Source of the DNA: a virus | Lineage: Duplodnaviria; Caudoviricetes | Length of the DNA: 59,137 nucleotides | Virus record (IMG/VR): IMGVR_UViG_3300030102_005755 | Span: 1-59,137 of that record | Reading direction: 5' to 3' (one strand) | In this document: piece by piece, positions 2,066-43,500 of the stretch | Numbering within the stretch: the stretch's first letter is position 1 | How the letters are laid out: every line of letters starts with the position of its first letter | Notes under the pieces: model-generated | Databases searched by the model: none | What the model was told of the DNA's origin: nothing | Seen by the model: the letters and a program-made list of their open reading frames with translations, nothing else | Translations under genes and position numbers: made by a program

Positions 2066-4183
2066 TCAGCCGATTGGCTTATATCGCCTGAAGAATTTCT
2101 TCTCGTCAAACTTTACTGGTTCTTTTTTGGGCTTCGACTTTTGAGCCCCAAGTAAGGCAAGACCCGAACTAATCGTAAGGTCAAACTTAGTACGATCGTT
2201 GATCTTGAAACCAATCCAATCTTCAAGAGTAGAGTTGAAATACATCTTCCCGTACTCCCCAGTTTCTCGGTGCATGCCAACGTGGTCATGTATGTATGCT
2301 TCAATGGCGTGTGCATGGGCTTGTATTACGTCTTGTGAGTTAGAAGGTATACCCTTGGTCTTGACATTTACCTTGGCATTTTTCGAAGATAGATGACCTG
2401 GCCTGTTCATCAAGTATCCATCGTAACCTCTTGATTCAAAGTATCTTGCAATGCCATACTTGTTGTTCTCAATCAAAAGAGGATAACCGTAAAAGAAAGC
2501 CGCCATCAAACAGTCTTCGTAGAATATCTTGGCAAGAGGGGGGCGAGACGCATACTCCAGCACAAACATGTTCGCAGGGTGCTGCATGTGAAACTTGTTG
2601 TACAGGTGCAGCGCCCCCTTAGACCCACGACCATCGACAGTAGCGTCAAGGTCATAAGAGTCAACCCCACCAACACCCAGCTCTGCATTAGGTGCAATAC
2701 GTTTACCTCGTTCTTCAAACTTAAGGTTCCTCAGTTCTTCTGGAGGCATCCATGCAATTCTGAACCTGCCCTGAGGGTCAGGCTTAAAAACTACAGAAGA
2801 GTCTTGGACCCCACCCTTCCAAACAAAGTTTCCCCGTACAACGGGGTTAGGGTATAGGTCATCATTGTATTGTATCTGCTCGTATATCTTGCCGATGTTG
2901 AACAGGCTTCCATCAATGCTATCCCTAAAAGCTTCATCCGTGGTAAAAGGAAACTGCCTGGTTACCTCGTTCAGCTCAGAGGGATCATCCTTCAATGTGG
3001 TCCTCTCGTTCTTGAGATAAGTCTTGGCGCCAAAGATGATGTCATCACCATCAAGGCCTTCTATTACTTTGTCTGGATCGTTGACAACGGGATGACCGTG
3101 CTTGTCAAAGAATCCTTCCAGGGATTCATAGGCTGGGATAAAGAGTCTATAGAGCCCTGATCGAGTTCTGCCGTTGGCATTTCTCTCTTCTGGGTTGGAG
3201 TCCCTCCACAAATCCTTGTACTCCTTACCCCCTTTGTCCATGGGGTTGACAGTACTGCCCACCAAGGCCTTCCCTACAATCTTTCTACCTACGATAAGGC
3301 AGGTCCTTTGTATCCTCCAGGCGTCTCTGATGTCTGTGGGCTTCTCCCACTTTCCTGCCTCATCCAGATACAGCAGGTGCAGCTTCTCTCCGTCGTATGC
3401 GTTGTTGGTGGTGTTCTTCCAGTTTACGACCGTATTAAGAGCCTCGCCCGTCTGCGCAGTCTTATTGTTCTTCGTGATTCTCTTACTCGGCTCGCGAAAA
3501 GCCAGCTCCATGCGTGGGTTCGTGGTACCATCTTGAATGGGTTTGAAGAAGAAGGGGTAGTGACGGAACATGTATACCACCTTCTTCATGAATATATTTT
3601 CCTGAGCGTCCTTACCAGTCTTTGACTGGATACCAAGGAGCTTGTCTTTGACCTGTGTCGCTTCGTCTAGAAGGACAGCGGAGCAGATGTTCGTATATCC
3701 ACTCCGCCTACACTTAGTGTACAGCTGGCCAATACAGCGCGGGTCCGCCTCACACGCAGCTAAATGTACGAAAATATTTTTTTGGAACTCCAGGAAGCTT
3801 GGATACCCTATATCCATCCTGGTCCACTGGAGCATCATATAGTGCCTACCCGTAATATACGTAGGTGTACCGTTGTTATAGAACCAAAAGCCCTCACGCC
3901 TGCGTCGAAACTCCTCCTCGATATACGGACGAAACTTTTCTCGAAACTCTCTGGGGGTCTCGGCCCACTCATCCATGCTCTTAATCCGAGACAGCTCCGC
4001 TGGCATAGGTTGCCTCTCCCACAACTGCATGTGGTTTGGCTTGTCATGTCCGAAAATTTTCTTCTTGGGAGGCTGAGCGGGAAGTGCAATGTGTAGACCA
4101 CCAACTGAAACAACTTCACCTTGCGTACCGTTGGGACAAATTGAGATAACAGCCTCATCATAGTTATCGTCCTTGACCAGCAT
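2066..4183 (-). CDS. terL: Terminase large subunit
   Basis: 705 aa; Walker A-like KCRRSGYT, Walker B LYLDEAGK, motif III GSTVN, RNase H-like nuclease GVDSYD...IENNK...FDLTISSGLA; adjacent to portal. Confidence 0.9.
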   Translation of the reverse strand: MLVKDDNYDEAVISICPNGTQGEVVSVGGLHIALPAQPPKKKIFGHDKPNHMQLWERQPMPAELSRIKSMDEWAETPREFREKFRPYIEEEFRRRREGFWFYNNGTPTYITGRHYMMLQWTRMDIGYPSFLEFQKNIFVHLAACEADPRCIGQLYTKCRRSGYTNICSAVLLDEATQVKDKLLGIQSKTGKDAQENIFMKKVVYMFRHYPFFFKPIQDGTTNPRMELAFREPSKRITKNNKTAQTGEALNTVVNWKNTTNNAYDGEKLHLLYLDEAGKWEKPTDIRDAWRIQRTCLIVGRKIVGKALVGSTVNPMDKGGKEYKDLWRDSNPEERNANGRTRSGLYRLFIPAYESLEGFFDKHGHPVVNDPDKVIEGLDGDDIIFGAKTYLKNERTTLKDDPSELNEVTRQFPFTTDEAFRDSIDGSLFNIGKIYEQIQYNDDLYPNPVVRGNFVWKGGVQDSSVVFKPDPQGRFRIAWMPPEELRNLKFEERGKRIAPNAELGVGGVDSYDLDATVDGRGSKGALHLYNKFHMQHPANMFVLEYASRPPLAKIFYEDCLMAAFFYGYPLLIENNKYGIARYFESRGYDGYLMNRPGHLSSKNAKVNVKTKGIPSNSQDVIQAHAHAIEAYIHDHVGMHRETGEYGKMYFNSTLEDWIGFKINDRTKFDLTISSGLALLGAQKSKPKKEPVKFDEKKFFRRYKPIG

Positions 4184-4295: not shown

Positions 4296-4309
4296 TGTAT
4301 TAAATTTTG

Positions 4310-4383
4310 TACGCCCGATAGGATTCGAACCTATGACCCACAGCTTAGAAGGCTGTTGCTCTATCCAACTGAGCTACGAGCGC
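4310..4383 (-). tRNA. tRNA-Arg (anticodon UCU), no encoded CCA
   Basis: GCGCTCG TA GCTC AGTTGGATA GAGC A ACAGC CT-TCT-AA GCTGT GGGTC ATAGG TTCGAAT CCTAT CGGGCGT A; complete cloverleaf. Confidence 0.95.
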
Positions 4384-4384
4384 A

Positions 4385-4461
4385 TGGTTGGGGCGACGGG
4401 ATTTGAACCCGTGACTTCCTGTGTATAAGACAGACGCTCTAACCAACTGAACTACGCCCCA
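4385..4461 (-). tRNA. tRNA-Ile (anticodon UAU) with encoded CCA
   Basis: TGGGGCG TA GTTC AGTTGGTTA GAGC G TCTGT CT-TAT-AC ACAGG AAGTC ACGGG TTCAAAT CCCGT CGCCCCA A CCA; 1 nt from the tRNA-Arg 5' end. Confidence 0.92.
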
Positions 4462-9984: not shown

Positions 9985-10808
9985 TATTCAGGGAGTTTTG
10001 CTCCGTACATAGCCTTCAAAGCATGAAGGAGTCTAAGGTCTTTGTTTTTATCCTGACCACGCTTCAAGATCTTCATGCCTTTCGCCCCGCCAGGGATACC
10101 AGCGCCAGCTAAAAGCTGCATCAAGGTATTGACGTCAATGTTTTGAGATGTGTCTGTACCATATCCCGCAAGCTGACCCTGGGCAATTTGATCCATCTGT
10201 GAACCTCCAGAGATGTCTGGGTACTCAAGCTCGCTAGTCGATGGTGTAGCACCGATCTCTTGCATACCACCCATAAGGCCTCTCTCATCCATGTTCTGAG
10301 ATGGGGCATCTTCTCCAGCAATCATTTTACCCAAGAGCTTTGTCCCGCCCTTCAGGGCTTTCCTCTTAACTGCGTCTGTCTTCAGAGCTTTGATGCCTTG
10401 GCCTACAGCGCTGCCGAGCTTAGAGCTGCCAAGATTGCTGGCAAGATTGCTGGCAAGACCAGACAAACCACCTCCGCTTTGAACAGCACTAACCAAAGCA
10501 GGGGCTCCAAAAGCCGCACCAGCAGCCAATGCACCTGCACCAATGCCTTTCTTGATTCTATCTCGCTGGACTTTCTTCAAGTACTCCAAGCGATCAGCAC
10601 TGCGTGGCCCTTCTTCGTTTAGCTTCCCCTGTCTATCCAACTTCTTGAGGTAACGCTTCTCTTTTCTCAAAGCTGAACCCTTGGTTCTTAAGAAGCCTTG
10701 ATTGCCAAATGCTGTGTTGATCCCAGAACCTGCCCCCTCCATGTCGGAGAACTTGTCCTGAGAGTTGCTGAAGAACCCTCCCTTGCGGTATTCTTTGTTG
10801 ATCTTCAT
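9984..10808 (-). CDS. Putative internal virion/ejection protein
   Basis: Gly/Ala-rich hydrophobic segment IGAGALAAGAAFGAPALVSAV; YRKGG, AKGMK and MYGAK motifs. Confidence 0.6.
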   Translation of the reverse strand: MKINKEYRKGGFFSNSQDKFSDMEGAGSGINTAFGNQGFLRTKGSALRKEKRYLKKLDRQGKLNEEGPRSADRLEYLKKVQRDRIKKGIGAGALAAGAAFGAPALVSAVQSGGGLSGLASNLASNLGSSKLGSAVGQGIKALKTDAVKRKALKGGTKLLGKMIAGEDAPSQNMDERGLMGGMQEIGATPSTSELEYPDISGGSQMDQIAQGQLAGYGTDTSQNIDVNTLMQLLAGAGIPGGAKGMKILKRGQDKNKDLRLLHALKAMYGAKLPE

Positions 10809-10813
10809 GGCTA

Positions 10814-10821
10814 CAAATATA
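10814..10821 (-). promoter_or_regulatory. -7 element TATATTTG, 5 nt before ATG 10808
   Basis: TAnnTTTG consensus. Confidence 0.6.
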
Positions 10822-10971
10822 GCCAGTTATTTTTTAGTACTCAAGCCCAGATCAAGGCTCTTTTTTTCAGGACACAACATCCCTCGCGCCATAAACAATA
10901 AAGGATTCCCTTTGTGCAAACAAAGAAAAATGCTTTGACTGCTTAAAAAGTTCTGAATCGCTTCAGTGCTG

Positions 10972-11002
10972 TAAAGGTATAAACAAAAATTTCAAAAGTC
11001 AA
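10972..11002 (-). promoter_or_regulatory. Putative host-type promoter TTGACT-N17-TACCTTTA
   Basis: Same spacing as plus-strand candidates at 18688-18718 and 22970-23000. Confidence 0.45.
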
Positions 11003-11590
11003 CCGTCAACAGTTACTTGAATACAAGGACTCCAACAGATTGCAAACCAGCAGGTTAAGAATTTTTGGTGTGAATTTGTCTCTGAAGTCAATCTAGCAAG
11101 ATCACCGCAAAAATGAGGGGAGTTCAATGCACCGTGGGGATTATATGTAGTAGCGGACGCCAGCGTGTACGACCAGAATCGGTTTGGCAGACCCCACCCC
11201 CCAACTATCTTCGATAGTTGCGCTGTAACTTTCAGCTTTTTACCTACTGACTTTCAGTCAGTTAGGTATGGATGGCTCCCCCACTGCGTGAGACTGCAGG
11301 GTGTAACGTGCTGTCTGTCAGGGTGGGACAATCCCCAACCTCAATCTCTACTTCAGCACCAACACCCCTTAACGGGGTGACACTGAAACGGCAAACCGAA
11401 GCCCTTCACGTAGCCTAACCTACGGAGATAACTGGTTATCTCTCAGCGTGTTAGGAGACTTCAGCTCCACTACAACTACCAAGGGTAGTGGTAGTGAGAA
11501 GCCGTCAGGGTAGAGGGTTGAGAGAAGAGAGAGAGGAGTCTACGACTCTCTCTCCTCTCAACACTCCTAGGCTCCGAGAGTCGGTCTAGG

Positions 11591-11601
11591 TCAAACTTCA
11601 A
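11591..11601 (+). promoter_or_regulatory. Early leader motif TCAAACTTCAA, copy 1
   Basis: Begins 22 nt before ATG 11613; other copies at 12329, 12635, 13482 and 14657. Confidence 0.7.
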
Positions 11602-11612
11602 AATCATCTCCG

Positions 11613-12137
11613 ATGAACAACTTCAACTTCTCTGACTGCCGTAAGGCAGTGAACCAAGCCACCTTCCGTCCAACCGCAGAGCGCAAAGCCGCCGCAGCGA
11701 AGCTGCTTCAGGAGGCCTTGGACTTCGTCACTAACCTCGAAGAGGTTAAGGAGACCAAGCCGAAAGCCAAGAAGCGTCGTCGTAAGACGACGAAGCGGAC
11801 ACCTTCACAGAAGGTGGCAGATGCTCAAGACAGGGCGGCTCTCAAGACCAACGAAGTTGGGCCAATCAAGCCCAAGTCGGCGAAGCCGAAAGCGTCGGTC
11901 AAGGCGGCGGCCAAGGCGGCGCAGGCCGTGAGTGAGCACACTGGGGCAGCGGCTAAAGCCGCCAAGAAAGCCGAACTCAAGGCCGAAGCGGTTCAACCAA
12001 AGGTTGAGGACAACCGCCTGACTTCTCTGGAAGAGAAGATTGAGATGCTGACCAAGTTGGTGGCCTTGCAGATGCAGGGTGAGCCTACCCACACGATCGA
12101 TACTATCAGTATCGATGAACTCCCTTTCCAACTCTAA
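11613..12137 (+). CDS. First early gene: Lys/Ala-rich histone-H1-like protein with acidic DELPF tail
   Basis: KPKAKKRRRK, KAAAKAA and AAKAAKKA repeats; short coiled coil; ends IDELPFQL. Confidence 0.8.
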   Translation: MNNFNFSDCRKAVNQATFRPTAERKAAAAKLLQEALDFVTNLEEVKETKPKAKKRRRKTTKRTPSQKVADAQDRAALKTNEVGPIKPKSAKPKASVKAAAKAAQAVSEHTGAAAKAAKKAELKAEAVQPKVEDNRLTSLEEKIEMLTKLVALQMQGEPTHTIDTISIDELPFQL

Positions 12138-12147
12138 TTCATCGAAG

Positions 12148-12240
12148 ATGACAATCCTTCTCCAACTCTTCATGCTCTGCGTGTACTCCACGCTCTCCGT
12201 GCTCTGCGTAGCCGCCTTGGTGAACTTGTTCACCGACTGA
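12148..12240 (+). CDS. 30-aa hydrophobic membrane peptide
   Basis: MTILLQLFMLCVYSTLSVLCVAALVNLFTD; C-ending codon bias like neighbouring genes. Confidence 0.55.
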   Translation: MTILLQLFMLCVYSTLSVLCVAALVNLFTD

Positions 12241-12258
12241 CCGACCGAACTCAACCCC

Positions 12259-12321
12259 TGTTAGTATCTCTTAGTACACACTCTCTTCATTTATGAAGAG
12301 TGTGTACTTAGAGAGACAACA
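12259..12321 (+). repeat. Long imperfect inverted repeat preceding leader copy 2
   Basis: AGTACACACTCTCTTCA / TGAAGAGTGTGTACT arms with a 2-nt bulge, plus outer TCTCT/AGAGA and TGTT/AACA pairs. Confidence 0.8.
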
Positions 12322-12349
12322 CTCAATGTCAAACTTCAATTCAACCATC

Positions 12350-12490
12350 ATGCATCCTTCTATGCGCCGTCAGCTCATCGCTGACCTCCTGACCTCTTCG
12401 TTCGACTTCGACCTCCTCACATCTACGGATGAATGGGAGCAGCTCACCTGCGACGAGCAGATGACATTGGCTGACCTCATCAACTGCTAA
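12350..12490 (+). CDS. Small acidic hypothetical protein (46 aa)
   Basis: MHPSMRRQLIADLL...; ATG 21 nt after the start of the leader motif. Confidence 0.6.
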   Translation: MHPSMRRQLIADLLTSSFDFDLLTSTDEWEQLTCDEQMTLADLINC

Positions 12491-12501
12491 ACCCAAAAAT
12501 C

Positions 12502-12603
12502 ATGTCAACGAAATTTCGCATAAAAGACGGGAACAGCTACGTCTGGCCCTGTTGGCTCCATGACTCTTACGTCAAGACGCTCAGGTACACTGACGAGTCC
12601 TGA
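12502..12603 (+). CDS. 33-aa ORF whose 3' end overlaps the hammerhead core
   Basis: MSTKFRIKDGNSYVWPCWLHDSYVKTLRYTDES; stop codon lies in ribozyme loop II. Confidence 0.45.
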   Translation: MSTKFRIKDGNSYVWPCWLHDSYVKTLRYTDES

Positions 12604-12636
12604 ATGGACGAAACACCCCCTTGGGGTGTCTGTATC
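12584..12636 (+). ncRNA. Type I hammerhead ribozyme
   Basis: Stem I GGUACA/UGUAUC; core CUGAcGA; stem II GUCC-UGAAU-GGAC; GAAA; stem III ACACCCC-CUU-GGGGUGU; GUC cleavage triplet with cut after 12630. All core nucleotides present. Confidence 0.92.
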
Positions 12637-12656
12637 AAACTTCAATTTTCTTTACG

Positions 12657-13079
12657 ATGGCATCTTTGCAATCACTCTACATGGCCCTGCAAGCAGGCGA
12701 GGGCTTCAGCGTAAACGCTGACCAAAAGACCTTTGCTGGACGTGGCTACGCAGTCGGTGGAACCGAGGTTCCGTCTCTCGTCGTTGAAAACGACAGCCTG
12801 TCCTTCAATCAATTCTCTGCCGCTATGCAGAACATGGCATCGAAGATGCTTGACCCAGACACCCAAGTGCTCGGCGGTTGGGTGGATGCAGGGATGGCCT
12901 TCATCGAGGTTTCCGACGTGGTGCGTAGCAAGTACGTCGCATTGGAACTTGCCGAGTACCGAAACGAAAGGGCCATCTACGACTTCAACACGCAGTCAGA
13001 GGTTCGCAACCCTAGCTTCATCAGCGGCACAGCCACCACCAAGGTCAATGTCTCACGTAAGCAAACACAGGAAGCATGA
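12657..13079 (+). CDS. Conserved phage early protein
   Basis: GFSV...GYAVG...LGGWVD....IEVS...A..LA..RNERAIYDF motif; start reassigned to ATG 12657, 22 nt after the start of the leader motif. Confidence 0.75.
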   Translation: MASLQSLYMALQAGEGFSVNADQKTFAGRGYAVGGTEVPSLVVENDSLSFNQFSAAMQNMASKMLDPDTQVLGGWVDAGMAFIEVSDVVRSKYVALELAEYRNERAIYDFNTQSEVRNPSFISGTATTKVNVSRKQTQEA

Positions 13080-13315
13080 ACATTTGGGAACGTTACCCAT
13101 CCAAGGGAACTCACTACGAGTGGAACCAAGCCAAGGCCAAGTTGCACACCTTCGAGTATTATGTCCACTACGGAAGCGACCGAGACGACTGGAAAGGCCC
13201 ACACAGGGTCAAGGCACTCACGAAAGAGGAGGCCATCCGAAGTGCCCAAAGGTACTTCGCAGACACGGGGTGGACCGTGTGGAACAAGACATTCAAAGTC
13301 GTTGATAATCAGTAA
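13076..13315 (+). CDS. Hypothetical protein
   Basis: ATGA overlap with the upstream gene. Confidence 0.7.
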   Translation: MNIWERYPSKGTHYEWNQAKAKLHTFEYYVHYGSDRDDWKGPHRVKALTKEEAIRSAQRYFADTGWTVWNKTFKVVDNQ

Positions 13316-13330
13316 CTTAACACCATTCAC

Positions 13331-13414
13331 ATGAAGAAGAACTTCAACATCGTGTTCGTGACGTTCGTTGCGTACCTGGCTACCTTGGTAGCAATCTACA
13401 TCCTCAACCTCTAG
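13331..13414 (+). CDS. 27-aa hydrophobic membrane peptide
   Basis: MKKNFNIVFVTFVAYLATLVAIYILNL. Confidence 0.55.
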   Translation: MKKNFNIVFVTFVAYLATLVAIYILNL

Positions 13415-13477
13415 AGAGTATCAGTATATATATCTCTCTGAACGTAGTGAAGAGAGTATATATATACGATACCTCTC
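13414..13477 (+). repeat. Long imperfect inverted repeat preceding leader copy 4
   Basis: GAGAGTATC-A-GTATATATATCTCTCT / loop GAACGTAGTGA / AGAGAG-T-ATATATATAC-GATAC-CTCTC; overlaps and is followed by an 18-nt match (CTCAATGTCAAACTTCAA) to 12322-12339. Confidence 0.8.
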
Positions 13478-13503
13478 AATGTCAAACTTCAAACTCCAAA
13501 CCG

Positions 13504-13767
13504 ATGGACAACATCAAAGACATGACGAACGACGAGTTCATCAACCACCTCATGACGGGGTACAGCAAGCACGGAGCACTCGTGCACTTGGTAGTCCTTG
13601 ACTGCCTTCAGCGTGGCCTCGACCACTACATATCACACAAGGATAAAATCCTTGAAGAGCACAACAATCCCCGTGAGGATGGGCGTATCTCACTCATCAA
13701 CATGAAGGCATGGGTTGAGTGCTGTGAAGAAACACAACAACGAATCAACGAAAAGTACAATGGATGA
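13504..13767 (+). CDS. Hypothetical protein
   Basis: MDNIKDMTNDEFINHLM...; start placed 22 nt after the start of the leader motif. Confidence 0.7.
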   Translation: MDNIKDMTNDEFINHLMTGYSKHGALVHLVVLDCLQRGLDHYISHKDKILEEHNNPREDGRISLINMKAWVECCEETQQRINEKYNG

Positions 13768-13939
13768 CCAAATCAGAAACTACGACACCTGCCACAAGTG
13801 TGGTGGAGTCGGCATCTTCCTCAACTCGGACCACGACGTCTCGGAATGGTACTACGACTACGAATGTGAAGATTGCCAAGCAACGTGGGACGTCACCTTT
13901 GAACTCAAACCCCTTGACCGAAACAACCATGACGACTAA
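13760..13939 (+). CDS. Zinc-ribbon protein
   Basis: CHKC...CEDC...W.VTF. Confidence 0.65.
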   Translation: MDDQIRNYDTCHKCGGVGIFLNSDHDVSEWYYDYECEDCQATWDVTFELKPLDRNNHDD

Positions 13940-14153
13940 CTTCCCCACCATCGGCTCTGCCGTGCTGTACCTCAACAGCCTCCACTACGGCGAGTTCCTC
14001 GATCGCCTGAACGTGGTCTCACGCCACGACCCTGAATGGATTCGAAACATCGCTGACATCATGATGGCGTTCGATTGGGAGAACGAGGATGAGAAGAAGC
14101 TGATGTTCAAGTGGTCTCTCAAAGAGAAATATGTAACGGCAGTAAACGCATGA
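13929..14153 (+). CDS. Hypothetical protein
   Basis: MTTNFPTIGSAVLYL...; coupled overlaps on both sides. Confidence 0.65.
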   Translation: MTTNFPTIGSAVLYLNSLHYGEFLDRLNVVSRHDPEWIRNIADIMMAFDWENEDEKKLMFKWSLKEKYVTAVNA

Positions 14154-14272
14154 GAGAACTAATCCGAACAACTCAAATCGACAAGGACTGCAAGGTGTGC
14201 AAGGGTGAGGGGTACGTCCCCGCCAAGCCACGCTACGAGATTTGTCCTAAATGCAAAAACAACAAGCAATGA
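14150..14272 (+). CDS. 40-aa DnaJ-type zinc-finger peptide
   Basis: MRELIRTTQIDKDCKVCKGEGYVPAKPRYEICPKCKNNKQ; ATGA overlaps on both sides. Confidence 0.6.
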   Translation: MRELIRTTQIDKDCKVCKGEGYVPAKPRYEICPKCKNNKQ

Positions 14273-14463
14273 ATATGTACGACAAAGCACTCAAAGCCCT
14301 CGAACGTGCGGGCTTCAGCCCCGACATGGTGGGGGCACCAGACGACCCCTGCATCTACGTCAATGTATGGACCGACGACATGGGAGAAGCACACGAGATG
14401 CGTCTGCACGACACCGAGATTGGTTGGTGGGCGAGCAAGTACGAGAAAGAATTGGTTAATTGA
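14269..14463 (+). CDS. Hypothetical protein
   Basis: MNMYDKALKALERAGF...EIGWWASKY; weakly similar to 15413..15634. Confidence 0.7.
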   Translation: MNMYDKALKALERAGFSPDMVGAPDDPCIYVNVWTDDMGEAHEMRLHDTEIGWWASKYEKELVN

Positions 14464-14474
14464 AGTTTGACCAC

Positions 14475-14520
14475 GAGGGGGTGACTACCTGAAACGTCAG
14501 GCCCTCCCCCTCACTTTTTT
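14475..14520 (+). terminator. Intrinsic terminator-like hairpin
   Basis: GAGGGGG...CCTGA-AACG-TCAGG...CCCCCTC followed by ACTTTTTT. Confidence 0.6.
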
Positions 14521-14521
14521 C

Positions 14522-14651
14522 AAGGGAGCGCAGTCGGTGCGTACATCCACGGAGATTGGTTCGGTGTCTCAGTACACTTGCAGACGTGCAAGTCGAACGA
14601 CATACGACAATTTCTACGGGTGGCAGTTGTGTTCGAATCCCAACCTCCCTT
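14522..14651 (+). ncRNA. tRNA-like structured RNA with extended anticodon arm
   Basis: Acceptor AAGGGAG/CTCCCTT; D-like arm CGCA-GTCGG-TGCG; long arm CATCC/GGGTG + GGAGATTG/CAATTTCT + GTTCG/CGAAC + ACTTGCA-GACG-TGCAAGT; T arm GTTGTG-TTCGAAT-CCCAAC. Confidence 0.7.
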
Positions 14652-14677
14652 CTATCACAAACTTCAATTCAATACCT

Positions 14678-15346
14678 ATGAAATACTATGCAGTAATCCA
14701 CGGTGTCTGCGGCCTGTACGAAGGCTACTCCGACACCACTTGTGACTGGTTCCCTACCGAGGAAGCCGCACAGAAACACGTCAAGCAATGCCTCGACACC
14801 TACCGAGAGGACGAGATGTGTGTCAACATTGACCACAGCGGAGACATGATGCACACCTTCGTCACCATGGACCGCGACCCTGACAACTATGCCGCTTGCG
14901 TCCCATCAGACATGGACCACGACGACTACGTTGCAGAGCATGGCGACGACGTAAGTGTCGAAGTGTTCCGAATCGTAGAGGTTGACAAGCCCTACCGCAG
15001 TGACACAACCGAGTCAGTGTGGCTGACATGGGACCAACAGGATTGCAGTGTGGCATGGGACTACTACCCCCTGTGTATGTCACTTGTTGCTCGTGTCTCC
15101 TCCGATGTGTTGGACACCACCAACGATGACTACCCAACGCAATCACTGCATAACCTTGCACAACTCGGTGAGTTCATCTCCGCTGTGTACTACCGCAAGG
15201 AAGCCTTCATCGACATCGACGACTACACCATGCACGCTTTCCGCATCCCCAAGAAGTTGGAGATGAGGTGTAACGAGTGCGGATATGTTGACGACGCAGT
15301 GGCTTCGCACTATGAAGAATGCTCTAAACTCAAGACAGATGCGTGA
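14678..15346 (+). CDS. Acidic hypothetical protein with C-terminal CxxC...H...C
   Basis: MKYYAVIHGVCG...; start placed after leader copy 5 (14657-14667). Confidence 0.75.
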   Translation: MKYYAVIHGVCGLYEGYSDTTCDWFPTEEAAQKHVKQCLDTYREDEMCVNIDHSGDMMHTFVTMDRDPDNYAACVPSDMDHDDYVAEHGDDVSVEVFRIVEVDKPYRSDTTESVWLTWDQQDCSVAWDYYPLCMSLVARVSSDVLDTTNDDYPTQSLHNLAQLGEFISAVYYRKEAFIDIDDYTMHAFRIPKKLEMRCNECGYVDDAVASHYEECSKLKTDA

Positions 15347-16272: not shown

Positions 16273-16460
16273 AATTCAAGAAATACACAAAGAACCTAGT
16301 GCATGACGGCAAGACGGTGTACAGCTACGGCACACCAGTGGCACGAGTGGAGGGTGACATCCTCCGTCAGCTCGGCTATTGGTCCGTGACCACACAGAAG
16401 CACATCAACTATGCCGCCGACCAACTCGGTCTCAAACTTCACAAACCAGTCAACCCATGA
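16269..16460 (+). CDS. Conserved small phage protein
   Basis: VYSYGTPVA...WSVTTQKHIN motif; start reassigned to ATG 16269. Confidence 0.75.
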   Translation: MKFKKYTKNLVHDGKTVYSYGTPVARVEGDILRQLGYWSVTTQKHINYAADQLGLKLHKPVNP

Positions 16461-28326: not shown

Positions 28327-28770
28327 TTACTTTTTTGCCTTTTCTATTGTACGACCAGCGAAGTATGCACCAAATGCTGTTAGCATTAGTATCTGCAGCA
28401 AATCTACGTAAGAATCCTTGACGTTAAATGGCCAGTTGTCCATGCTGTCGGCCACCATGGTCACCATAAACATGCTCATCAAAGCGATGAGAGTGACAGG
28501 CCTGATCAGCTTTGCCAGCTTGACGTCACTGCCCATGTCAGCCTTCCATCTTTCAGTTACGTTGTTCTGATATTGGATCTCCGCATCGACAGCTGCAACA
28601 CCCTCGTCGGTATTGACATCAGGGTCTTTTTCTATCAGGTTCTTTACAATGCCAAGACCCCCGCTATCTGGAAGCAGGTCTCCGACAACATCAAGCACGT
28701 TGGGTGCTTTAGACTTGAGCCACTTTCCGAGGCCCGTATCCTTAATCTTCTTTTCCTCTGATTGTTTCAT
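28327..28770 (-). CDS. Holin-like membrane protein (GTA 3TM holin-like)
   Basis: ERWKADM.SD...K.IRP, two TM helices, AYFAGRTIEK. Confidence 0.7.
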   Translation of the reverse strand: MKQSEEKKIKDTGLGKWLKSKAPNVLDVVGDLLPDSGGLGIVKNLIEKDPDVNTDEGVAAVDAEIQYQNNVTERWKADMGSDVKLAKLIRPVTLIALMSMFMVTMVADSMDNWPFNVKDSYVDLLQILMLTAFGAYFAGRTIEKAKK

Positions 28771-31700
28771 ATTGCTTGTTGAATCTCATTACTATTCTTC
28801 TCTCTTTGTCCCTTAGTTCTTGGATGCGCTTCATGCGCTCAGTATAATCCTTGATCTTAAGGGCCTGTCTTTTTGCAGCTCTTATCGCCTTGAGTTGTTT
28901 GTCGAAAGACTTGAGAGAATTGTTGAGTCCGAGGACTCCGATATACCTCTCTCCCTTGTCTCTTCTTGGGTTGTTCTTTAGCTCCTTGGTGAGCTGCATA
29001 ATCTCTTGACGGCGGCGGCTGTAATCCTCCATGTCCATGTACTTTGATGGTTCTCCGTACAGGATTCTCATGAATGGGATGTCGTTGGCTTCAATTCTGA
29101 TATCGTTGTCCTCAGCCTTGGCCTTGAGCTTCATGGCAGTAGAGCCTGTTCTTTCAACAAACTTACCAGCACCGCCAATGAAGTACTCGAACATGTACCA
29201 CATCTTGTCTGGGTTGAAGTCAAGGTCCCCCTTCACATCGACAGAACCTCCAGTAGCTTCGTTCATCCATCTGAAGAACTGCTGCACACCCTCAGGTGAG
29301 CGGAAAGAGAGGGAAGACTCTGGCCTCTGAAGTCCGTATGGCAGGTTCTCTGTGTACACTGGACCTCCGAAGTAAGTTTCGTTGGTCATGACGTCAACCA
29401 GCGGCTTGAATACCGTAGGCACAACAGACTTACCTGCCTTTGTAAACAAGTCCTTGGATTGCCCAAACGAAATAGGAGAGAAGGAGTTTATGAAGGCCGA
29501 CGACAGCTGCATCATAGCCGTGTCTATCTCCTTGTGTCCAGCCCCAACCTCCACGGCTGTGGTTCCGAGGTTTGCAAACATGCTGAATCCATACGGCAAA
29601 GGAATCTTGAAGTAATCCTTTCCATTGGGGCGCATGAAAATAAGGTTTCTCTCCTTGATGTAGTCTGGAATCTTGTTGTAGTACAACTCACCATCCTCAT
29701 CCTCGTCAGACATAGCCATAGCAATCATTGCAGACAAGCCACTGAATACAGTGAGGGCTGCCGCCATCTTCTGAGCGTTGTTGAACCTATCCTTGAATGC
29801 TCTCTTTGTTCCGTCTGGATACGTCGGTGACTTCATGGTGAGCAATGACTTGCCTAGTCTTGCTGTACCCTGAACAGAAGCGTTAAAGAACAGGTATACA
29901 GAGTTCAGCAGTTGACCATACTCACCAGACTTGTTGAAGTTCACGGTGATATTCTTGGCCATCTGTGCTGCCTTCTCTCTGGTCACACCTCTCTCTCTGG
30001 CTGCGATGTAAGAAGAAAGTCTGATGCTGTTCTCAAATGCGTCGTTGTATCCCTCGACAACTTGAGCAAACTCCTCTGCCTTTCCAAACAGATTCTGCAT
30101 CTTGCTCTTTTCTGAAGACTTGCTTTGAAGATCAGCAGCAATGCGGTCGAGAGGCTTTGCATAGCTCCAGCCTGTTTTACCACCGTCGTCTCTGAACTCG
30201 TTGTAGTATCTCTCTACTTCAGGATTCTCGGCAAAGAATTTCTTTAGAGCCTCTGGGCTCTCTGATCTGAGAAGAACCTTCAATGTCTTGGGGACATTCT
30301 TAATCATCTCAGTTACAATGCCTTGCCCCTCTATGACTCCGCCAGGTATGTCAGCTTCTGCAGCTGCGTTGAACATGGCTGCTTGAATATCACGAGAGAA
30401 GTTTGAGATCATAAACTCTGGGTTCAGAGTGGTAAATGATCTTCTCAGCCAGTTCGCTGGCGCTCTCATCATGCGGACAAACACGCTAGTCTGAGGCAGG
30501 TTCATGTTCCTCAAGGTCTCTGCGTAGCTCGCATCCTTGAACCTGATAAACTTCTGCTCTCCGTTTACTCTGACCGATACAATGTGCGGGTCCTTGGAGT
30601 TCACGTTCTTGGCGTCAAGAATCCTCCATACATCTTCGTTCGGGTTAGACTCTACAAGATTGTAGAGCGACTGCAAAGCCTCGTTAGTTCTAGCCTTGAT
30701 GTGTATAGAAGAGTTCTGTGCAATAACCTGAGCCAGGATATTTGTTGCTTCGCTCTGTCTACCCTCTGCCCTTTTGGTTGTAGGTCCAAACACAGACATG
30801 CCTGCACCACCTGTGGGGTACGAGGAAGTAAACGATGTCTCTTCGTCAATAGCGATACCTGAGAGCGGCACGTAGTTTTCAAACTGTGCTTCGAAAGCAT
30901 CAATAGCCTCTTGAGTCTCAAGTCCAAACTTGACCATGGTATCTCTCGTGTCTTGCTGGATCTCGCGCACGAGATCAACAATTTCTTTGAGAGAGTCAGA
31001 CCTGCCCTCAAGTGACTTCAAGATCAAATCAGCCCTGGCATCTGACATACCAGAACCCTCTTTGTTTTGACCGTTTGTGCGCTCTTTTATGAGCTCGTTT
31101 CTCTCTTTTGCGTGCAGAGCATAGAGATAGTCTGATACATCTTGTACACTGAGGCCTCTGTCTTTGATGAGGTCTGTGATGGCATCAACCTTCACGTCCA
31201 ACTTTCTCAGGTCCTCTGCCGCCTTACCATACATCAGCTCTTCTGCCATCTGAAAGTCTTGATCGGCAGCTCTTTTGCCTCTTGCAGCCTCTACGTCAGC
31301 TTGAAGCTGGAAGATGTCTACGTATTTGTCCTGCAGTCTTTTGAGCCATGTGTTTCTCCATCTCTGGAAGCCGTTCATGTCTCTCATTTGCCAAGACCCA
31401 TTGGTAGTTTCACCCTTGACGAAGCCTTGTCTTCTTCTTACAGATGCTTTGATGTTTACATCTTGAGCTTCTGCGTTGAACTCAACCCTGCTGTACCTGT
31501 TGAGCATCTCTGCCTTATCATAAGGCGTTTTCGCCTTGGCTACCTCTGCAGCTTTCTTTGAGCTGCTTGCTTCAGATGTTTGGAAAAGCTCTGGGTCGAT
31601 CTTGTCAAGAGTAAACTGCTCTCTGAAAACTTTCAGCTTTGCATCAGGACCTGGTCTTTTTACAACCACTGCCCCTCCAAAGCCATACCCCTCTAGCTGA

Positions 31701-34700
31701 ACAACTCTCATGTTTGCCAACTTGACCTGACCATACTGATCAAATATATCTGGGTCAATCTCGTAGTTAAAGGTCTTATACCCTATGAGGGTTGCTGGCT
31801 TTTGCTGTGAAAGAACTGGGTCGTTAAAGTACTCAGCTATTTGTTCGTCCATTGAGAGGGATTCATCAGGAATAGTTCTCCCTAATTCAAACTTCTCATG
31901 AGAGAAAAACTCTGCCAAAAGTTTTTTTGAAAAAAGATTTTTTCTTCCTTCAAACTGATCCGCCAATCGGTCGTTGTAGTTTATGGCGACGTCTATAATT
32001 TCTTCAAACTGTTTTTGAGTTGTGACTGGAAGGTCAAACTCAGCATCAAATAAAGCTGCAGTTTCTGAAGAAAGACCTCCAAACCCATCAGCTTGAGCCA
32101 TCCGCACCATAGTCCTTATGGCTTTCTTTCCTGTGCCGCTAAACATCCCGTATAAAGAAGGCCCTCCAATGTTATTGGTCTTGTCTCTAGACCTAGCCAA
32201 AAGGCCGTTCAAGTACGACTTGGCTACATCTGGGTTGCCTCGTGTAGCCTCTGGTTTAAGCATAGAAAATCCAGCCCCAAACTTGCCGCTCATGTTAAGC
32301 TTACGCGCCGCCTTGGGACTACCCTCTCGCTCTTGCCTTCTGTATATTCTTTCTGCCTCCTTCCTGTATCTTTCCATCCTTTGCCTAGCATACTCAAAGC
32401 TTACGTGAGTAGATATAACTACTTCGTCAGCCTCAAGCTCAGGCAAATCAGCTGCGTCCAGCTCTTGAACAGCCCTGATTCCAGATGTGATTCCTTTCTC
32501 TTGATCGGGCATTGACTGATCGTAGCCGCTGATTGGCATAAAGACACCCGTCAAGTCTTCGTACTTACCTTCCAAGAAGTCAGACAGTTCTTTGTCAGAC
32601 AGTATGTGGTCAGGATCACCAAGCTGGTCTCTTCTTCTGGTAGAGAACCTCATGTTTGCGACGACATCACCAGTCTCCGCCTCATCAAATGGAGCAAGGC
32701 CTGTGGCATTCACAATGTCGCCATCCATGATTCTGTTAAGACCCTCAATACCAGCGCGTCCTGGCTGCTTGATTCTTTCTCTAACCTCGTTCTTGGTAAG
32801 CCCCATTTCGAGGGCTTCTTGCATGTTCTTTTGTTCAATGACAGCAGATATATACTGATCATTGATCGTCATCTCTTGTATCGGCTTGGATGCTGGGGCA
32901 AACTGTCCAGCGTTCACAAACTGCTTCCAAGGTATTGTGGCAAACAACGCCCTGTTGCTATCACGCAACTTAGCGAGCTTTCTCGTTACCTCTTTCTGAG
33001 ACTCAATATCCTGAATCTTTCTCTGATTGTATATATCCTTTGGGCTAGGTGGCAAGGCCATAGGAACCTTCTTGCCGTCTTTGTCTACACGAGGACGAGG
33101 AGGTTTGATGGCGTACTTCTTACCGTCCTTGATGAAGTACATCTCACCAATCCTGTCTGCAGTTTGGTTGCCAGTGGTCTTGTTGTACCAGTTTCTAAAG
33201 TGGAAGTAGTCGTTGACCCTAATAGATCTGGGAGAACTGTACGTCGTGTACCTGCTGCTAGTGACCACGGCATCTCCAGCCTGCAAATATGGTCTTGCAG
33301 TGTAGAAAATTTCGGTGTCCTTGAGGTAGTTGAACTCCTGCTTACGGCGCACGGACATGCGGCCCTGGAATAAATCTAAGCTTGCTGCATCCGCGAGTAC
33401 ATCTTCATCAGGAGCAGAGATACCTTCGGCCCCCTCAAGCAAGGCATCTGCTTGATCTTTAAGGGCTTGTCTCTTTTGATCTTCGCTCAAGGTCTTGTCT
33501 GCTGCGATGTCTTCAGCGGATTTCTTTTCCGCCTCAGGCGCAACTTCTTCTGCAACAGGTGCTTCTTCGGCAACAGCTTCCTCAGATGCAGCCTCTTCAG
33601 CGACAGGAGCATCTGTAGAAACTTCTGTAGCCCTACCTTCTGATGACTGCCTAAACTTTTCTGCAAGGGCAAACAAACCTTCCTTGCCCGTAATGATATT
33701 CTTCTTGAGACCAGCAGCCTTCAGTACCTTGTTGATCGCCTTGACAATCTTGTCAGCGACAGATGCAAATGCAGCTGGGTTAGCGGCATAGTTTACAAGA
33801 ACGCTAATGATAGCCTCCTCTTCCTGAACCGCTTCGCTTTGATTTCCGTAATCCTCGTTACTCTGGGCTAGTATTTTAGCCACAAGCTTAGCCCCCTTGC
33901 TTTTGCCCTTAGCAATTTTCTGCATTTCTGCAAACAGAGCCTGTCTGGATGCAGCATCCTTTCCAATTATAGGGGCTAAAACCAGGTGGCCAAACTCTTC
34001 CATGACATCCATGATGTCGGCCTCTGGACTAAGGTGTATCTCGTTGGTCAATGGGTTCAAATAAGCCACGGTCTGACCTTGCACTCCAATAACCTCAAGG
34101 TATTTATTTTGATTCTTAACCTCTTCATTGCTGTTGATGAATGACTCCATCGTTCTGTGCGCCTTAAGCTTCGCGCCAGCAGTTTTAAGGGCACTACCAA
34201 ATGCCTTGGTGAGGTTGTTGATCGTTCTAGCATTGCTGATAGATACTTGACCAGCTCCCTCTCCAACCTTCTTAGTGTCCCTCAGATCAAGGGTTTCACC
34301 AGCAGCCAAATCAACAGTAACTGCGTCTTCTTCAGCTTGTTGTGCAGCCTCTGCTTGCTGGGCTTCTGGAGCTTCAGCTTGTTGTTCTGCCTCGACAGGT
34401 GGCTTGACCTCTTCGCCTGGCCTCTGGACCATGTCGTCCATGGTGTTCTCGTCAAACATGAGTAGCTGACCCTCCTCTTGCACCAGTTCTGCAGGAGCGG
34501 GTTGGGTGGCTTCAGGAACTCTTTTGTGAGAATCAATCTCTGTCTGCTCTACGTTTCTTTCTTTTGCAGGACGGCTCTTGTTTCCAGAGTCAGGCACAAT
34601 AACTTCAGAAGGCACGCTTGCTTTGAACGCCCTGTCCTCAGCAATCTTTTCTATCTGAGCCTTTCTAGTGAAGAGATCAGTAAGCCTTTCCTTGAGCTCT

Positions 34701-40595: not shown

Positions 40596-43500
40596 TCAGT
40601 ATGTGATGATGTCTAAAATATCTCCTGGGTCGTCTGGCAACACAAGGCCTCCAACCCCGCCAAGGTCAGGATCAAACCCTCCAGGAAATGCGTCACCTCC
40701 AGTATTACCACCTCCGCCGCTTGAATCGTCTTCACCTGCGTCTTCATCAGTGACGTCGTCTTCACTTGTATCTTCCTCAGTAGTGTCGTCTCCAGTATCG
40801 GTAGTGTCTCCTCCAGTCTCTCCTGAGGTATCATCGTCTACTGTGGTAGTATCATCTTCCTCCGAAGTATCATCCTCTTCCACCACCTCTTCTATTATGA
40901 TGGGCTGATTGTACACGCTTAGAATGTAAGTGTCCTCATAGGGATCGTAACCTCCGACAACTTTAATCTCACCCATTCCTTCCAGCTCGTCAGCCTCAGC
41001 TTTCTCAAACAAATCCTTAAAGAAGGTCTTCATGCCAACCTCTGATATAACCTGTATACCAGAAGAAGGGTTGAACTTATAGACTTGTCTTGCGCCCTTA
41101 CTTGCAAAGTAGACCGTATTCCCTATGTCGCACACAGACTCTGGATTGTCGTCACATCCGTAGTTGCCAGCATAGTACCTTTCTGTGCCTAGTACAGATT
41201 TAGCAGCGACAAGCGACTCACCCCCACCACCGTCAGTAATAATATTCCTGTTGACAGGAACTGAGCTACATCTGCTGGATTGAATAACGAATATTGAATC
41301 GTCGTTGTTGATCAAATAGTTGATGTCTCCAAACTCAGAGGGCAAATCCTTGAATTGCCCCTTGACAGGGTTGAAGGATGTGATCGTGTTGATCTTGGAT
41401 ATGGGGTTGTTCTTGTCAGAGAACGTTATAGAAGCCTCCTTTCTAGACTCCTGAATATTCGGAGCTACTAGCTTTATCTTGCCTTGCCCCCACACATCAG
41501 AGTTGGAGACCTTTGTGCTAAATACTTGTGACTCAATGTTGTATGGGAAAAAGTTAGACGTTGCTTCATCTTCTGAAATCAGAGAAACAAAGTTGCCGCC
41601 CTCTACTTTCTGGAAGTTCATGGCCTCTGTCTTGAACCATACATCCCCACCTTTCAATATTTTTTCCTGCTCAAATTCTGTGATTGGATACACTGGGCCA
41701 ATCTCATAGTACACAAGGCTTTCTTCATCAGCCGACTTTCTTGGAGAGTAGACTTCAAACACACACCTCTTATTCCATGCGTGAGTTGTAGAGTCTGGGT
41801 TGTTTTCCCCAAGCTTAATTACATCGGCAGTAAAGTCTGTAGCCTGTGGGTTGTTTTCCAAAACTAAGAAAGGTCCAACCTTGGACGGATGAGGCAGTTC
41901 TCCATCTTGCTCTACGTCGTACAAAGGGTTGTCTGTGCCGTCGTTTAAGAACCGTTGGTCTACAACGTTGAACTCATATTCAGACCCAGCAAACACCCTG
42001 TTATTTTGAGTGTTGAAGTGAGAAATGATTCTAAGCCTGTCGCCTTCTCTGTATGTATATACGTCTTGGGCTCCTTCAACGCTCCTTGCTCCTTTCGCTT
42101 TCGAGAAAGATATGGGGTGACCCTGGAGGTGATTGAGAGAAACAAAGATGTTGCCAGAATCCGTGTCGGCATTTCCTGGGGTCACGAACGCTCCACCAGA
42201 AGAGTACTGCACAAAGCGAGACATCGTCGTGTTCCCGCTGTACACAAACCTGAATGACGTAGCTCCATCGGGAACCTCCCCAGCAAGTGTTATTGATACA
42301 GACTCTACTGGACCTGTATTTTGAGGGCTGTCCCTCTCTCCAAACCAAGGCACATACATAGACCCTATAGGGTTTACTTCAGAGCACCTACCCCTTTCGT
42401 CGTAAAACACAACACCAAAGGCGTGGTTAGCTCCAGCCTTAAACGACTGAGAACCACCTGATCCAGGCTCTATAAGGAACAGTATATTGTTTACCCCGTC
42501 AGGATTGCTTATCTGCGTTTCAAACAGATTCGGATCAGAAAAAAAGGCAAAGTCCTCGCTAAAGTGTTCTTTTCTTAAGAAGGCCTGTATAAACGACTGG
42601 CCAATAGCAGGGTTTGTGGTGTTAAAAGAACCTGTGCCCAAGTGTATAAAGGGTAGCGAAGTCTGTCTTAAGATTGGACTACCAATGCTATAGTCGTTGT
42701 TGTCAGTCAAGAAGTCATCTCCGCTGTGTTGAACGGCTGGAAACTTTGCATCAGATTCAGGATCCGATCCAAGAACAATGTTGTTGTCGATGCCTGGGCC
42801 ATACAATCCAGGGAAAACAAGATCGCCTGCGTCTTGATCAGATCTAGATATACCAAAGAGGCCGACAGAGCCTACAGATCCTATGCCAACACCGTAGTCA
42901 TCAAGGTTAGGACCAAGGAGGCCGTGCAAGGCGTATGTATCATATACAGAGTTCTCATCAATACCACCTCCTCCTGGCCCGCCAGCGCCGTCCATAAGCG
43001 TATATAATGACTTTCCTTCTGGAGATTCCCCCTTGAAAAAGACAACGCTTTCACCTCTATTTGTGACAGCATCAACATACTCAGAAGTGTAGTGAAGCCC
43101 ACCGAGAACTGTTTTCCAGGGAGCAAAGAAAGGAGACCCATCTACTTTCCTGAACATGTTCTCCTCTGTAATGGATATAATCTGTCCAGTCCCTGGCATA
43201 GAAACTTGAATGCCAAAAGTTGTTCCTATTGAATCCTGAGGTGCTGCATCATTGTCTACATTGTGACCCAACGCAGCTGCAAATCCAGGGTTCACCTGAA
43301 GCCCACCCTGTGGGAGTCCGTTATCAGGGCTGATAAATGGAAATAAGCTGTACTCCCTGAAGTCTACCCCTGGAAGCAAAGGACTGGTGTCCCCCTCTTC
43401 AAGATTATATGGGGCAAAGAACCACCAACGGGCACCCTGAACAGGTCTGCGCATACAGCTGAGTATGGCGTTCTCCTCGTCAGGCAAAGAAACTTCTTTG

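Follow-up and report, generated by a model that had tools for sequence, protein, structure and literature searches.

A probable RNA-punctuated early operon with a shared translation leader and a candidate anti-leader RNA in a Bacteroidota phage

The DNA analysed here (the window) is a whole virus record, IMGVR_UViG_3300030102_005755 (Duplodnaviria; Caudoviricetes), of 59,137 bp with an estimated completeness of 97%. It belongs to a marine Flavobacteria-type phage whose host is a member of the Bacteroidota. At the start of its rightward block of small genes, five genes are preceded by the same 10-nucleotide (nt) motif, CAAACTTCAA, and each copy directly follows a structured element. We consider it probable that this region is an early operon punctuated by RNA elements, in which the genes share a standard translation leader and to which a candidate anti-leader regulator belongs. 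The cleavages, the translational role of the leader and its pairing with a complement are what we infer from the sequences of this phage and its relatives.

The early genes would be transcribed by the host as a polycistron punctuated by RNA modules, such that each small early gene would receive the same leader. CAAACUUCAA, lying within an almost G-free and unstructured 5' leader, would constitute the translation-initiation region, with its final AA located some 12-13 nt upstream of the start codon. The type I hammerhead would cut itself 5 nt before the motif, the 25-bp hairpins would be likely RNase III sites and/or stems that protect the ends, and the tRNA mimics would be likely substrates of RNase P/Z. 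In relatives, a host sigma-A promoter would provide a transcript starting 4-5 nt before the motif. Finally, a complement of the motif at the 3' end of the first operon, carried on a stable fragment that ends in a hairpin, would pair with the leaders and modulate them, shut-off being the most economical guess.

The relatives were collected by protein- and pattern-based scans of IMG/VR, which gave 82 loci from 56 contigs (L001-L082), and one metagenome scan added at least 109 further stretches. Most of the loci from the first four relative scans contain several copies of the motif on the strand of the early genes, and some loci recruited only by the tRNA-mimic word are without it.

The shared leader and the elements in front of it

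The exact motif is found seven times on the two strands of the 59,137 bp, versus a mean of 0.41 in dinucleotide-preserving shuffles, none of 100 of which reaches seven. When up to one mismatch is allowed, the signal is weak, with 14 matches versus 7.9 expected and 3 of 100 shuffles reaching 14. The five early copies on the plus strand start at 11592, 12330, 12636, 13483 and 14658 (11591, 12329, 12635, 13482 and 14657 with the preceding T/A) and, counted with this T/A, are followed 21-22 nt downstream by the ATGs at 11613, 12350, 12657, 13504 and 14678. The original prediction, made by a model from the letters of the window, had claimed these positions and this distance, as well as a structured element directly 5' of each copy; all five copies were reproduced, and the computed folds agree with the elements. 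The two remaining exact copies, which the original prediction had not listed, are located at 45362 (plus strand), inside a minus-strand structural gene, where the match is probably due to chance, and at 14460-14469, in inverted orientation. The leaders and the elements preceding them are as follows.

11513-11566 and 11567-11589, plus strand: a larger and a short hairpin, respectively, directly 5' of leader copy 1, from the minimum free energy fold
11591-11612, plus strand: leader copy 1, T and CAAACTTCAA with an 11-nt spacer, followed by ATG 11613 of the first early gene (11613-12137)
12259-12321, plus strand: long hairpin 1, about 25 bp, -29.5 kcal/mol, z -5.9, 0 of 200 shuffles as stable
12329-12349, plus strand: leader copy 2, followed by ATG 12350 (gene 12350-12490)
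12569-12636, plus strand: type I hammerhead, core 12584-12636 with an accessory 5' hairpin from 12569, identified from fold and covariation
12635-12656, plus strand: leader copy 3, followed by ATG 12657 (gene 12657-13079)
13414-13477, plus strand: long hairpin 2, about 25 pairs, loop type CTGAACGTAGTGAAG, -29.9 kcal/mol, z -6.5
13482-13503, plus strand: leader copy 4, followed by degenerate 7-nt repeats and ATG 13504
14522-14652, plus strand: tRNA-like RNA of 131 nt, minimum free energy fold a four-way junction
14657-14677, plus strand: leader copy 5, followed by ATG 14678 (gene 14678-15346)

The hammerhead in front of leader copy 3, which had been proposed from the letters alone, is confirmed by covariation and overlaps the motif. 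Its fold is the minimum free energy fold of the window sequence, and self-cleavage is predicted after C12630, leaving 5'-UGUAU before the motif. The motif contributes its first base, C12636, to the last pair of stem I (G2-C57 in the alignment) and is thus transcribed together with the ribozyme. In an alignment of 39 sequences followed by the motif (35 distinct rows), the catalytic core is invariant in 39/39, and the cleavage-site base is C in all of them. The paired positions can pair in 98.1% of the cells, and 9 of the 17 pairs, distributed over all three stems, have changed on both sides. None of 500 shuffles reaches the covariation score, and controls in which the partner was slid pair in 29-55% of the cells. 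The core consensus (CUGANGA ... GAAA, with a cleavage-site base other than G) and the three helices, with stem I open, are all present. Judged by fold and covariation, the hammerhead is genuine.

A strict scan that did not require the motif returned 46 distinct hammerheads, of which 40 are followed by the leader; in 37 of them, the motif starts at the sixth nucleotide after the cut. The six hammerheads without an exact leader comprise two with a leader bearing 1-2 changes, one located before another hammerhead, two located before a hairpin (one of them, in L079, with a tRNA after the hairpin) and one that is unexplained. The tandem arrangement (L045 621) and the hammerhead preceding a hairpin and a tRNA (L079 603) indicate that, in these phages, hammerheads also serve non-coding RNAs. 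In the window, a 33-aa open reading frame (ORF) at 12503-12604 stops inside loop II of the hammerhead, and its translation could therefore interfere with the folding of the ribozyme.

Both long hairpins of the window lie between genes and have stems exceeding about 20 bp, which is the format of RNase III-type sites. All 41 distinct cases of a hairpin with the CTGAACGTAGTGAAG loop type precede a leader. The segment 11513-11589, in front of leader copy 1, is homologous and conserved in 8 aligned relatives, and other relatives carry a sigma-A promoter and a short hairpin at this place. A small hydrophobic ORF ends right before each of the long hairpins (30 aa at 12149-12241 and 27 aa at 13333-13416). 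Neither ORF is preceded by a CAAACTTCAA leader, and the first has a counterpart in L001.

In the tRNA-like RNA in front of leader copy 5, the acceptor stem is formed by 14522-14528 pairing with 14645-14651, and the fold also exhibits a D-like hairpin with GG and a T arm with a TTCGAAT loop. The place of the anticodon arm is occupied by a branched insert of about 75 nt, C14652 takes the discriminator position, and a CCA is lacking. The element is called by neither ARAGORN nor Rfam, and no tRNA match is obtained in 10700-15000 at E values up to 10. It thus combines an acceptor, a T arm and a D-type hairpin with the lack of an anticodon arm bearing a 7-nt loop, and it is a mimic, not a decoder. 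Its T arm and acceptor are conserved and co-vary in relatives. On the early strand, 46 distinct T-arm elements are found, among which 11 stem variants keep their pairing and 40 of 46 have an acceptor partner matching at 7/7 positions; the class is genuine. In L079, a model-positive tRNA (36.2 bits) is located 9 nt before a leader.

The mimics of the relatives differ widely at the anticodon position, where the insert is absent in L032 and L034 and reaches about 80 nt elsewhere, with very different lengths and sequences, and the D-like loop of L018 and L022 also holds an insert. In L002, L005, L006, L010, L014, L016 and L022, arrays of 2-4 different structured RNAs are found between the inverted copy of the motif and the next leader. 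These arrays comprise at least three kinds of tRNA mimic with different T arms, along with other conserved folds of 100-200 nt.

The elements can be exchanged for one another. We classed 195 distinct leader instances from the window and L001-L082, after dropping duplicates and instances near the end of a locus. The upstream element is a long hairpin in 95, a hammerhead in 38, a short hairpin in 21 and an exact TAnnTTTG promoter in 16. The smaller classes are a preceding tandem motif (9), a tRNA-like element (6) and a near-consensus promoter (5), and no element is recognised in the last 5. The proteins encoded downstream fall into 32 clusters, 14 of which have at least three members, and more than one upstream class is found in 10 of these 14 ortholog groups. 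The 20 orthologs of the first gene are preceded by promoters (8), short hairpins (9) or long hairpins (3). Orthologs of the 12350 gene follow a long hairpin (20), a hammerhead (6) or a sigma-A promoter (1), and those of the 12657 gene a hammerhead (15), a long hairpin (5) or a tRNA-like element (1). A long hairpin precedes the 13504 gene in 11/11 orthologs, and orthologs of the 14678 gene follow a long hairpin (12), a tRNA-like element (4), a sigma-A promoter (3) or a near-consensus promoter (1).

The expectation that relatives would exchange element types in front of the same motif is thus borne out in 10 of 14 groups. The related claim of three interchangeable chemistries holds for the interchangeability, and relatives add the sigma-A promoter as a fourth route. 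The presence of the same gene behind different element classes indicates that the motif is a transcribed leader, not a promoter. The ribozyme, the long hairpin, the tRNA mimic and the promoter appear to be functionally equivalent devices for starting or insulating a message.

Cassette exchange happens at these modules, as segments are replaced in metagenome contigs of relatives: the 73-nt mimic insert at 14547-14621 gives way to 13-14 other letters, and the segment between the two long hairpins (12240-13427) is replaced as well. The units of element and motif could accordingly be mainly recombination cassettes, similar to PeSL (promoter/stem-loop) units, that shuffle small early genes, with a secondary role in expression. 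The units flank small and variable early ORFs, the gene content between them varies, and the same types of unit precede different genes. Metagenome contigs of relatives run from 12240, just before long hairpin 1, through about 31 other letters to 13427, at the beginning of long hairpin 2, and the motif is also found in tandem 7-nt repeats. Nevertheless, recombination alone explains neither the preferred distance of 10-12 nt to the ATG nor the G-free spacer and the exact register between ribozyme and motif. The co-varying inverted copy of 10-13 nt is likewise unexplained, this homology being too short for gene conversion. We regard a mainly recombinational role as unlikely, and it is not exclusive of the RNA-punctuated operon.

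Among 176 instances in the relatives, the spacer between the end of the motif and the ATG measures 10-12 nt in 127 and 1-6 nt in 25, the other 24 having different lengths. The 21-22 nt rule is therefore a mode and not a law. The spacers are very poor in G, which accounts for 98 of 1994 bases (4.9%). The exact 10-mer is kept even between phages with protein identities of only 49-80%. With the spacer at its modal length, the final AA of the motif falls at about -12/-13, and its CAA within -14 to -11. In Baez et al. 2019 (PMC6847099), initiation regions of Bacteroidota are described as lacking a Shine-Dalgarno sequence and as having low structure, with a positive effect of A at -14 to -11; in Flavobacterium johnsoniae, A at these positions and low structure raise translation, and the region lies near protein S1. 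The final AA of the motif had been predicted to occupy the A-stimulated positions of Flavobacterium, and it does. In composition and position, the leader looks like an optimised initiation region that dispenses with a Shine-Dalgarno sequence. Host leaders of Bacteroidota share this composition, whereas the phage leader is an exact shared 10-mer, and such an exact word points to an additional, specific partner.

A sixth leader with one mismatch, CAAACTTCAC, is located at 16433-16459, 14 nt before ATG 16457 and within the end of the upstream ORF, whose stop overlaps this start as ATGA. In the distant clade of L072, L074 and L078, other G-poor leaders are used and the complement is absent. A text search of the literature with the motif and its complement gave, among the matches listed, only primers or guides of unrelated work.

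The inverted copy of the leader

The inverted copy occupies the end of the last gene of the first early block (14251-14463) and is followed by a hairpin.

14460-14472, plus strand: inverted copy TTGAAGTTTG followed by ACC (10-mer at 14460-14469), overlapping the TGA at 14461-14463 of gene 14251-14463
14475-14512, plus strand: GC-rich hairpin with conserved apical YTGAAACGTCAR, then a T-rich tail, -20.7 kcal/mol, terminator-like or a 3' stabiliser

The order on the early strand is complement, ACC, hairpin, T-rich stretch and tRNA mimic, and the complement is found at the same place in relatives. Over 67 distinct contexts, the hairpin following the complement has a median energy of -24.3 kcal/mol, and the complement is fully unpaired in 55 of the 67 local minimum free energy folds, including that of the window. 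The predicted duplexes between the complement and the five leaders of the window range from -15.0 to -24.1 kcal/mol, with complementarity spanning 10-18 nt. The mean for 63 other start regions is -8.1 kcal/mol, and one of these 63 reached -20.2 kcal/mol. The predicted folds thus comprise a single-stranded complementary seed and a stable terminal hairpin, as in regulatory RNAs derived from a 3' untranslated region (UTR).

The complement changes together with the leaders. In the A-type clade of L057 and L082, and in L079, all leaders read CAAACATCAA (3/3 in L057 and 3/3 in L079), and the inverted copy matches this change. L128 has an A-type inverted copy and no leader within the locus. In the deletion-type L088, L091 and L110, most leaders are without one A, and the inverted copy is without the matching T; L091 keeps two standard leaders. 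The counts by type of inverted copy are as follows.

Standard inverted copy: 80 contexts; leaders 245 standard, 1 A-type, 4 deletion-type
A-type inverted copy: 3 contexts; leaders 0 standard, 6 A-type, 0 deletion-type
Deletion-type inverted copy: 3 contexts; leaders 1 standard, 0 A-type, 4 deletion-type

The two are also found together. Among 39 contexts with at least 3 kb upstream, a leader is present in 31/31 of those with the complement (30 of which have at least two) versus 1/8 of those without it. Read on the minus strand, the inverted copy has no ATG behind it and is therefore not the leader of an antisense gene.

The inverted copy may be an anti-leader, whose seed would pair over 10-18 nt with all early leaders, either in trans or in cis with the next operon. 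We propose this role tentatively, on the strength of modelled duplexes and of the shared changes, and we hold it to be possible rather than probable. If it is true, a single RNA switch (delayed shut-off, a timer or RNase III targeting) would act on the whole early gene set, and the leader would be conserved to the letter as the address of this switch.

The motif could also be a handle for a sequence-specific protein, such as a repressor of the T4 RegA type or a nuclease of the RegB type, in which case the inverted copy would be an extra site and not a partner. A protein reader could account for the conservation of the exact 10-mer across phages with 49-80% identical proteins and for the concerted change of all copies in two clades. 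Nevertheless, no RNA- or DNA-binding domain is recognised in the early proteins with Pfam and PHROGs, and a protein that binds RNA would not recognise the complement within the same transcript. Moreover, the inverted copy has no ATG behind it on the minus strand and always has the features of a small RNA, being single-stranded and followed by a hairpin and a T-rich tail. A protein handle is therefore improbable in our view, and the pairing of complement and leaders is retained as part of the RNA-punctuated operon.

Transcript starts and the promoter question

The motif does not resemble the TTTG/TAnnTTTG elements of Bacteroidota promoters. In L057 and L079, a -7 box ends 9 nt before the motif. 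According to Baez et al. 2019 (PMC6847099), the -7 box lies at -12 to -5 and transcription starts 4-5 nt after the box; this placement predicts a primary 5' end 4-5 nt before the motif. Downstream of the predicted hammerhead cut, and downstream of the discriminator base of the window mimic (UAUCA), five nucleotides likewise precede the motif. Other relatives have a short terminal hairpin between the predicted start and the motif. Exact -7 boxes are found 3-45 nt 5' of the motif in 16 of the 195 instances.

The original prediction had offered, as its alternative, that hairpin and motif form a promoter. On this view, a phage RNA polymerase or a modified host one would use the motif, with or without the hairpin, as an early promoter in the DNA, each gene would have its own transcription unit, and the hairpins would be terminators. 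Such a promoter would fit the location of the motif upstream of genes and in their orientation, frequently behind a strong hairpin and in one case behind a terminator-like one, as well as the phages of the window type, in which no sigma-A promoter is recognisable in the early region. The co-changing inverted copy would fit a single DNA-reading factor, too. However, stem I of the hammerhead takes the first base of the motif in 39/39 sequences, so transcripts run through it, and the canonical sigma-A boxes in front of the same genes in relatives imply that the motif lies at about +5/+6, or deeper, in the transcript. The 1-6 nt between motif and ATG in 25 of 176 instances leave no room for a start site downstream. 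The motif is unlike TTTG/TAnnTTTG, and neither a phage RNA polymerase nor a sigma factor was found. The ribozyme register, the swaps and the upstream sigma-A boxes disfavour the promoter, to which we assign a very low probability.

In the search for a polymerase or sigma factor, PF00940 gave no match, although this profile also missed control genomes. The 2668-aa and 1711-aa proteins of the window had no match among PDB sequences with phmmer, and Pfam searches of 20 window proteins (19 from the plus strand) returned nothing relevant to polymerase, sigma or nucleic-acid binding. The only DFDxD motif, a DFDND in the 1711-aa protein (residue 455), was considered as the active site of a crAss-type RNA polymerase and rejected: the protein matches crAss_MUZ, and the motif is not invariant in 18 homologues. 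A preprint on phi14:2 (10.1101/2020.03.07.982082) describes early transcripts without a common upstream motif, and it has no bearing on this phage.

A non-coding region of about 800 nt (10809-11512) separates the divergent gene blocks and contains blocks conserved in 8 relatives and several conserved hairpins. A leftward promoter-like block, TTGAC...TACCTTTG, is found around 10973-11002 (TACCTTTA in the window). An invariant GGGGA..ATAT block, GGGGATTATATGTA, at about 11130-11150, is shared by relatives and is a candidate for the rightward early promoter. The best sigma-A-like candidate, TTTG-N19-TATCTTCG at 11183-11213, has one mismatch and is not conserved in relatives. Over the whole genome, 26 copies of TAnnTTTG fall on the minus strand versus 4 on the plus strand, and several are found just 5' of minus-strand starts, for example at 10821 (start 10808), 53728 (start 53703) and 36760 (start 36748). 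This placement suggests host sigma-A promoters with very short leaders for middle/late genes.

Several observations weigh against the RNA-punctuated operon. All counts come from related phages and are hence not independent. The hammerhead scores below the Rfam gathering scores (23.2 versus 34 for RF00163, with E 0.027 on 4.3 kb; 25.9 versus 56.3 for RAGATH-1, RF03152), which is due to a long stem III and a short stem I, the core being unbroken. For the long hairpins, no strand asymmetry is seen: of 89, the plus strand is more stable in 43, the reverse complement in 44, and the rest are equal. The mean minimum free energies are -28.1 kcal/mol (plus) versus -27.7 kcal/mol (reverse complement), and the reverse complement has more G-U pairs because of its G/T-rich make-up. 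An RNA-level role is thus not proven for the long hairpins.

The placement of the leaders is also imperfect. No upstream element is recognised for 5 of 195 leaders, some of which come right after the preceding stop codon. In addition, the ATG follows within 1-6 nt in 25 of 176 leaders. The leaders thus have no strict need of a nearby 5' end or of a fixed ribosome register; the leader can also work internally, and the devices would add an end or insulation without being indispensable.

The leader/complement covariation amounts to two events, each in one clade, and would also be expected if one sequence-specific protein read all copies. The distant L102 keeps a near-copy of the complement without a leader and was not counted as covariation. 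No promoter was found for the early region of the window, TAnnTTTG being absent from the plus strand between 10.8 and 15 kb, and in 7 phages of the window type no TAnnTTTG is found within 800 nt 5' of the first leader. The sole clear RNA run consists of two assembled contigs, 13480-13641 and 13815-13971, and contigs carry no information on ends, strand or level. A contig start inside the 3' arm of the long hairpin of a relative was rejected as a processed end, since inverted repeats break assemblies there.

Genome context and known systems

The genes of the window are arranged in a leftward block from 10808, a rightward block from 11613 to about 24375, at the start of which the leaders and elements are found, and late genes running leftward from the far end. 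The window encodes a portal, a large terminase, virion proteins, a primase-helicase and a protein with a type IX secretion sorting domain. For the terminase, the nearest cultured phages are the Flavobacterium elemo phages (41.6% identity), and Cellulophaga phages match as well, at less than 60%. A blastn search of 10800-15000 against the phage collection gave no match among cultured relatives, and elemoA and phi38:1 contain no significant type I hammerhead, the top score being 12.7 bits.

The first early protein (11613-12137) is very basic and of low complexity, with a K/A/P-rich middle, and has no family match; it could be a nucleic-acid binder. The 2668-aa protein at 28742-36748 (minus strand) is an LPD38 protein that otherwise matches only the C-terminal parts of PHROG families, which are 2800-3900 positions long and whose function is not known. 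The 1711-aa protein at 40596-45731 (minus strand) matches Pfam crAss_MUZ, the crAss muzzle family (32.3 bits), which links this group of 59-kb phages to crAss-type tails. Two tRNAs are found at 4309-4461 by both ARAGORN and Rfam.

The nearest counterpart of the long hairpins is found in T7/T3, where RNase III cuts the host-transcribed early polycistron at long imperfect hairpins, which remain as end protection. In contrast to the phages described here, no shared leader is known behind the T7 sites; here, relatives swap hairpins for ribozymes, mimics and promoters, and the cleavage is deduced from the folds. In small RNAs derived from a 3' UTR, and in 5'-3' UTR pairing such as that of icaR of Staphylococcus aureus, a seed preceding the terminal hairpin pairs with a translation-initiation region. 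By analogy, a single seed would here address the whole early gene set through the common leader, which differs from these cases and suggests that a phage RNA may be able to address all early genes via one shared word. In the synthetic RiboJ, a ribozyme gives every construct the same 5' end. The hammerhead-leader parts resemble such synthetic insulators and could serve as tools for Flavobacteria.

Forner et al. 2007 (PMC1920247) deals with tRNA punctuation in mitochondria and the t-elements of plants, in which tRNA-like folds recruit processing enzymes and set mRNA ends. The present case differs in being a bacterial phage, in having a mimic with a variable insert and no anticodon arm, and in the arrays of mimics found in relatives. 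In the T4-type PeSL, according to PMC2839356 and PMC4122927, a promoter/stem-loop lies between small, variable early genes and allows modular shuffling. There, the conserved linear part is an early promoter, whereas here it is a transcribed leader, made together with the hammerhead and located downstream of sigma-A boxes, and its companion may be a ribozyme or a mimic.

The closest precedent is that of Perreault et al. 2011 (PMC3088659), who report clustered hammerheads flanking genes in prophages and phages and proposed processing into gene-length mRNAs. They also describe a hammerhead variant of a halovirus, located 13 nt before an early gene, with a 5' end mapped within 3 nt of the cleavage site. 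Their Dataset S1 may already contain some of the metagenomic hammerheads analysed here. Literature on RAGATH, hammerheads and phages gave no description of the present arrangement. The two cases share hammerheads between the genes of a long phage transcript. In contrast to what the portion seen of that paper describes, the ribozyme is here one of four swappable devices, is set in a fixed register with a leader, and is accompanied by a co-varying complement.

Ribozyme-punctuated phage operons have thus been proposed since 2011, and the present phages constitute a natural experiment on hammerhead function, as well as a testable candidate for the recognition of start regions in Shine-Dalgarno-blind Bacteroidota. 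What is new with respect to the known systems is that four kinds of element replace one another at orthologous genes, that the register with an invariant leader is exact, and that a complement of this leader co-varies with it.

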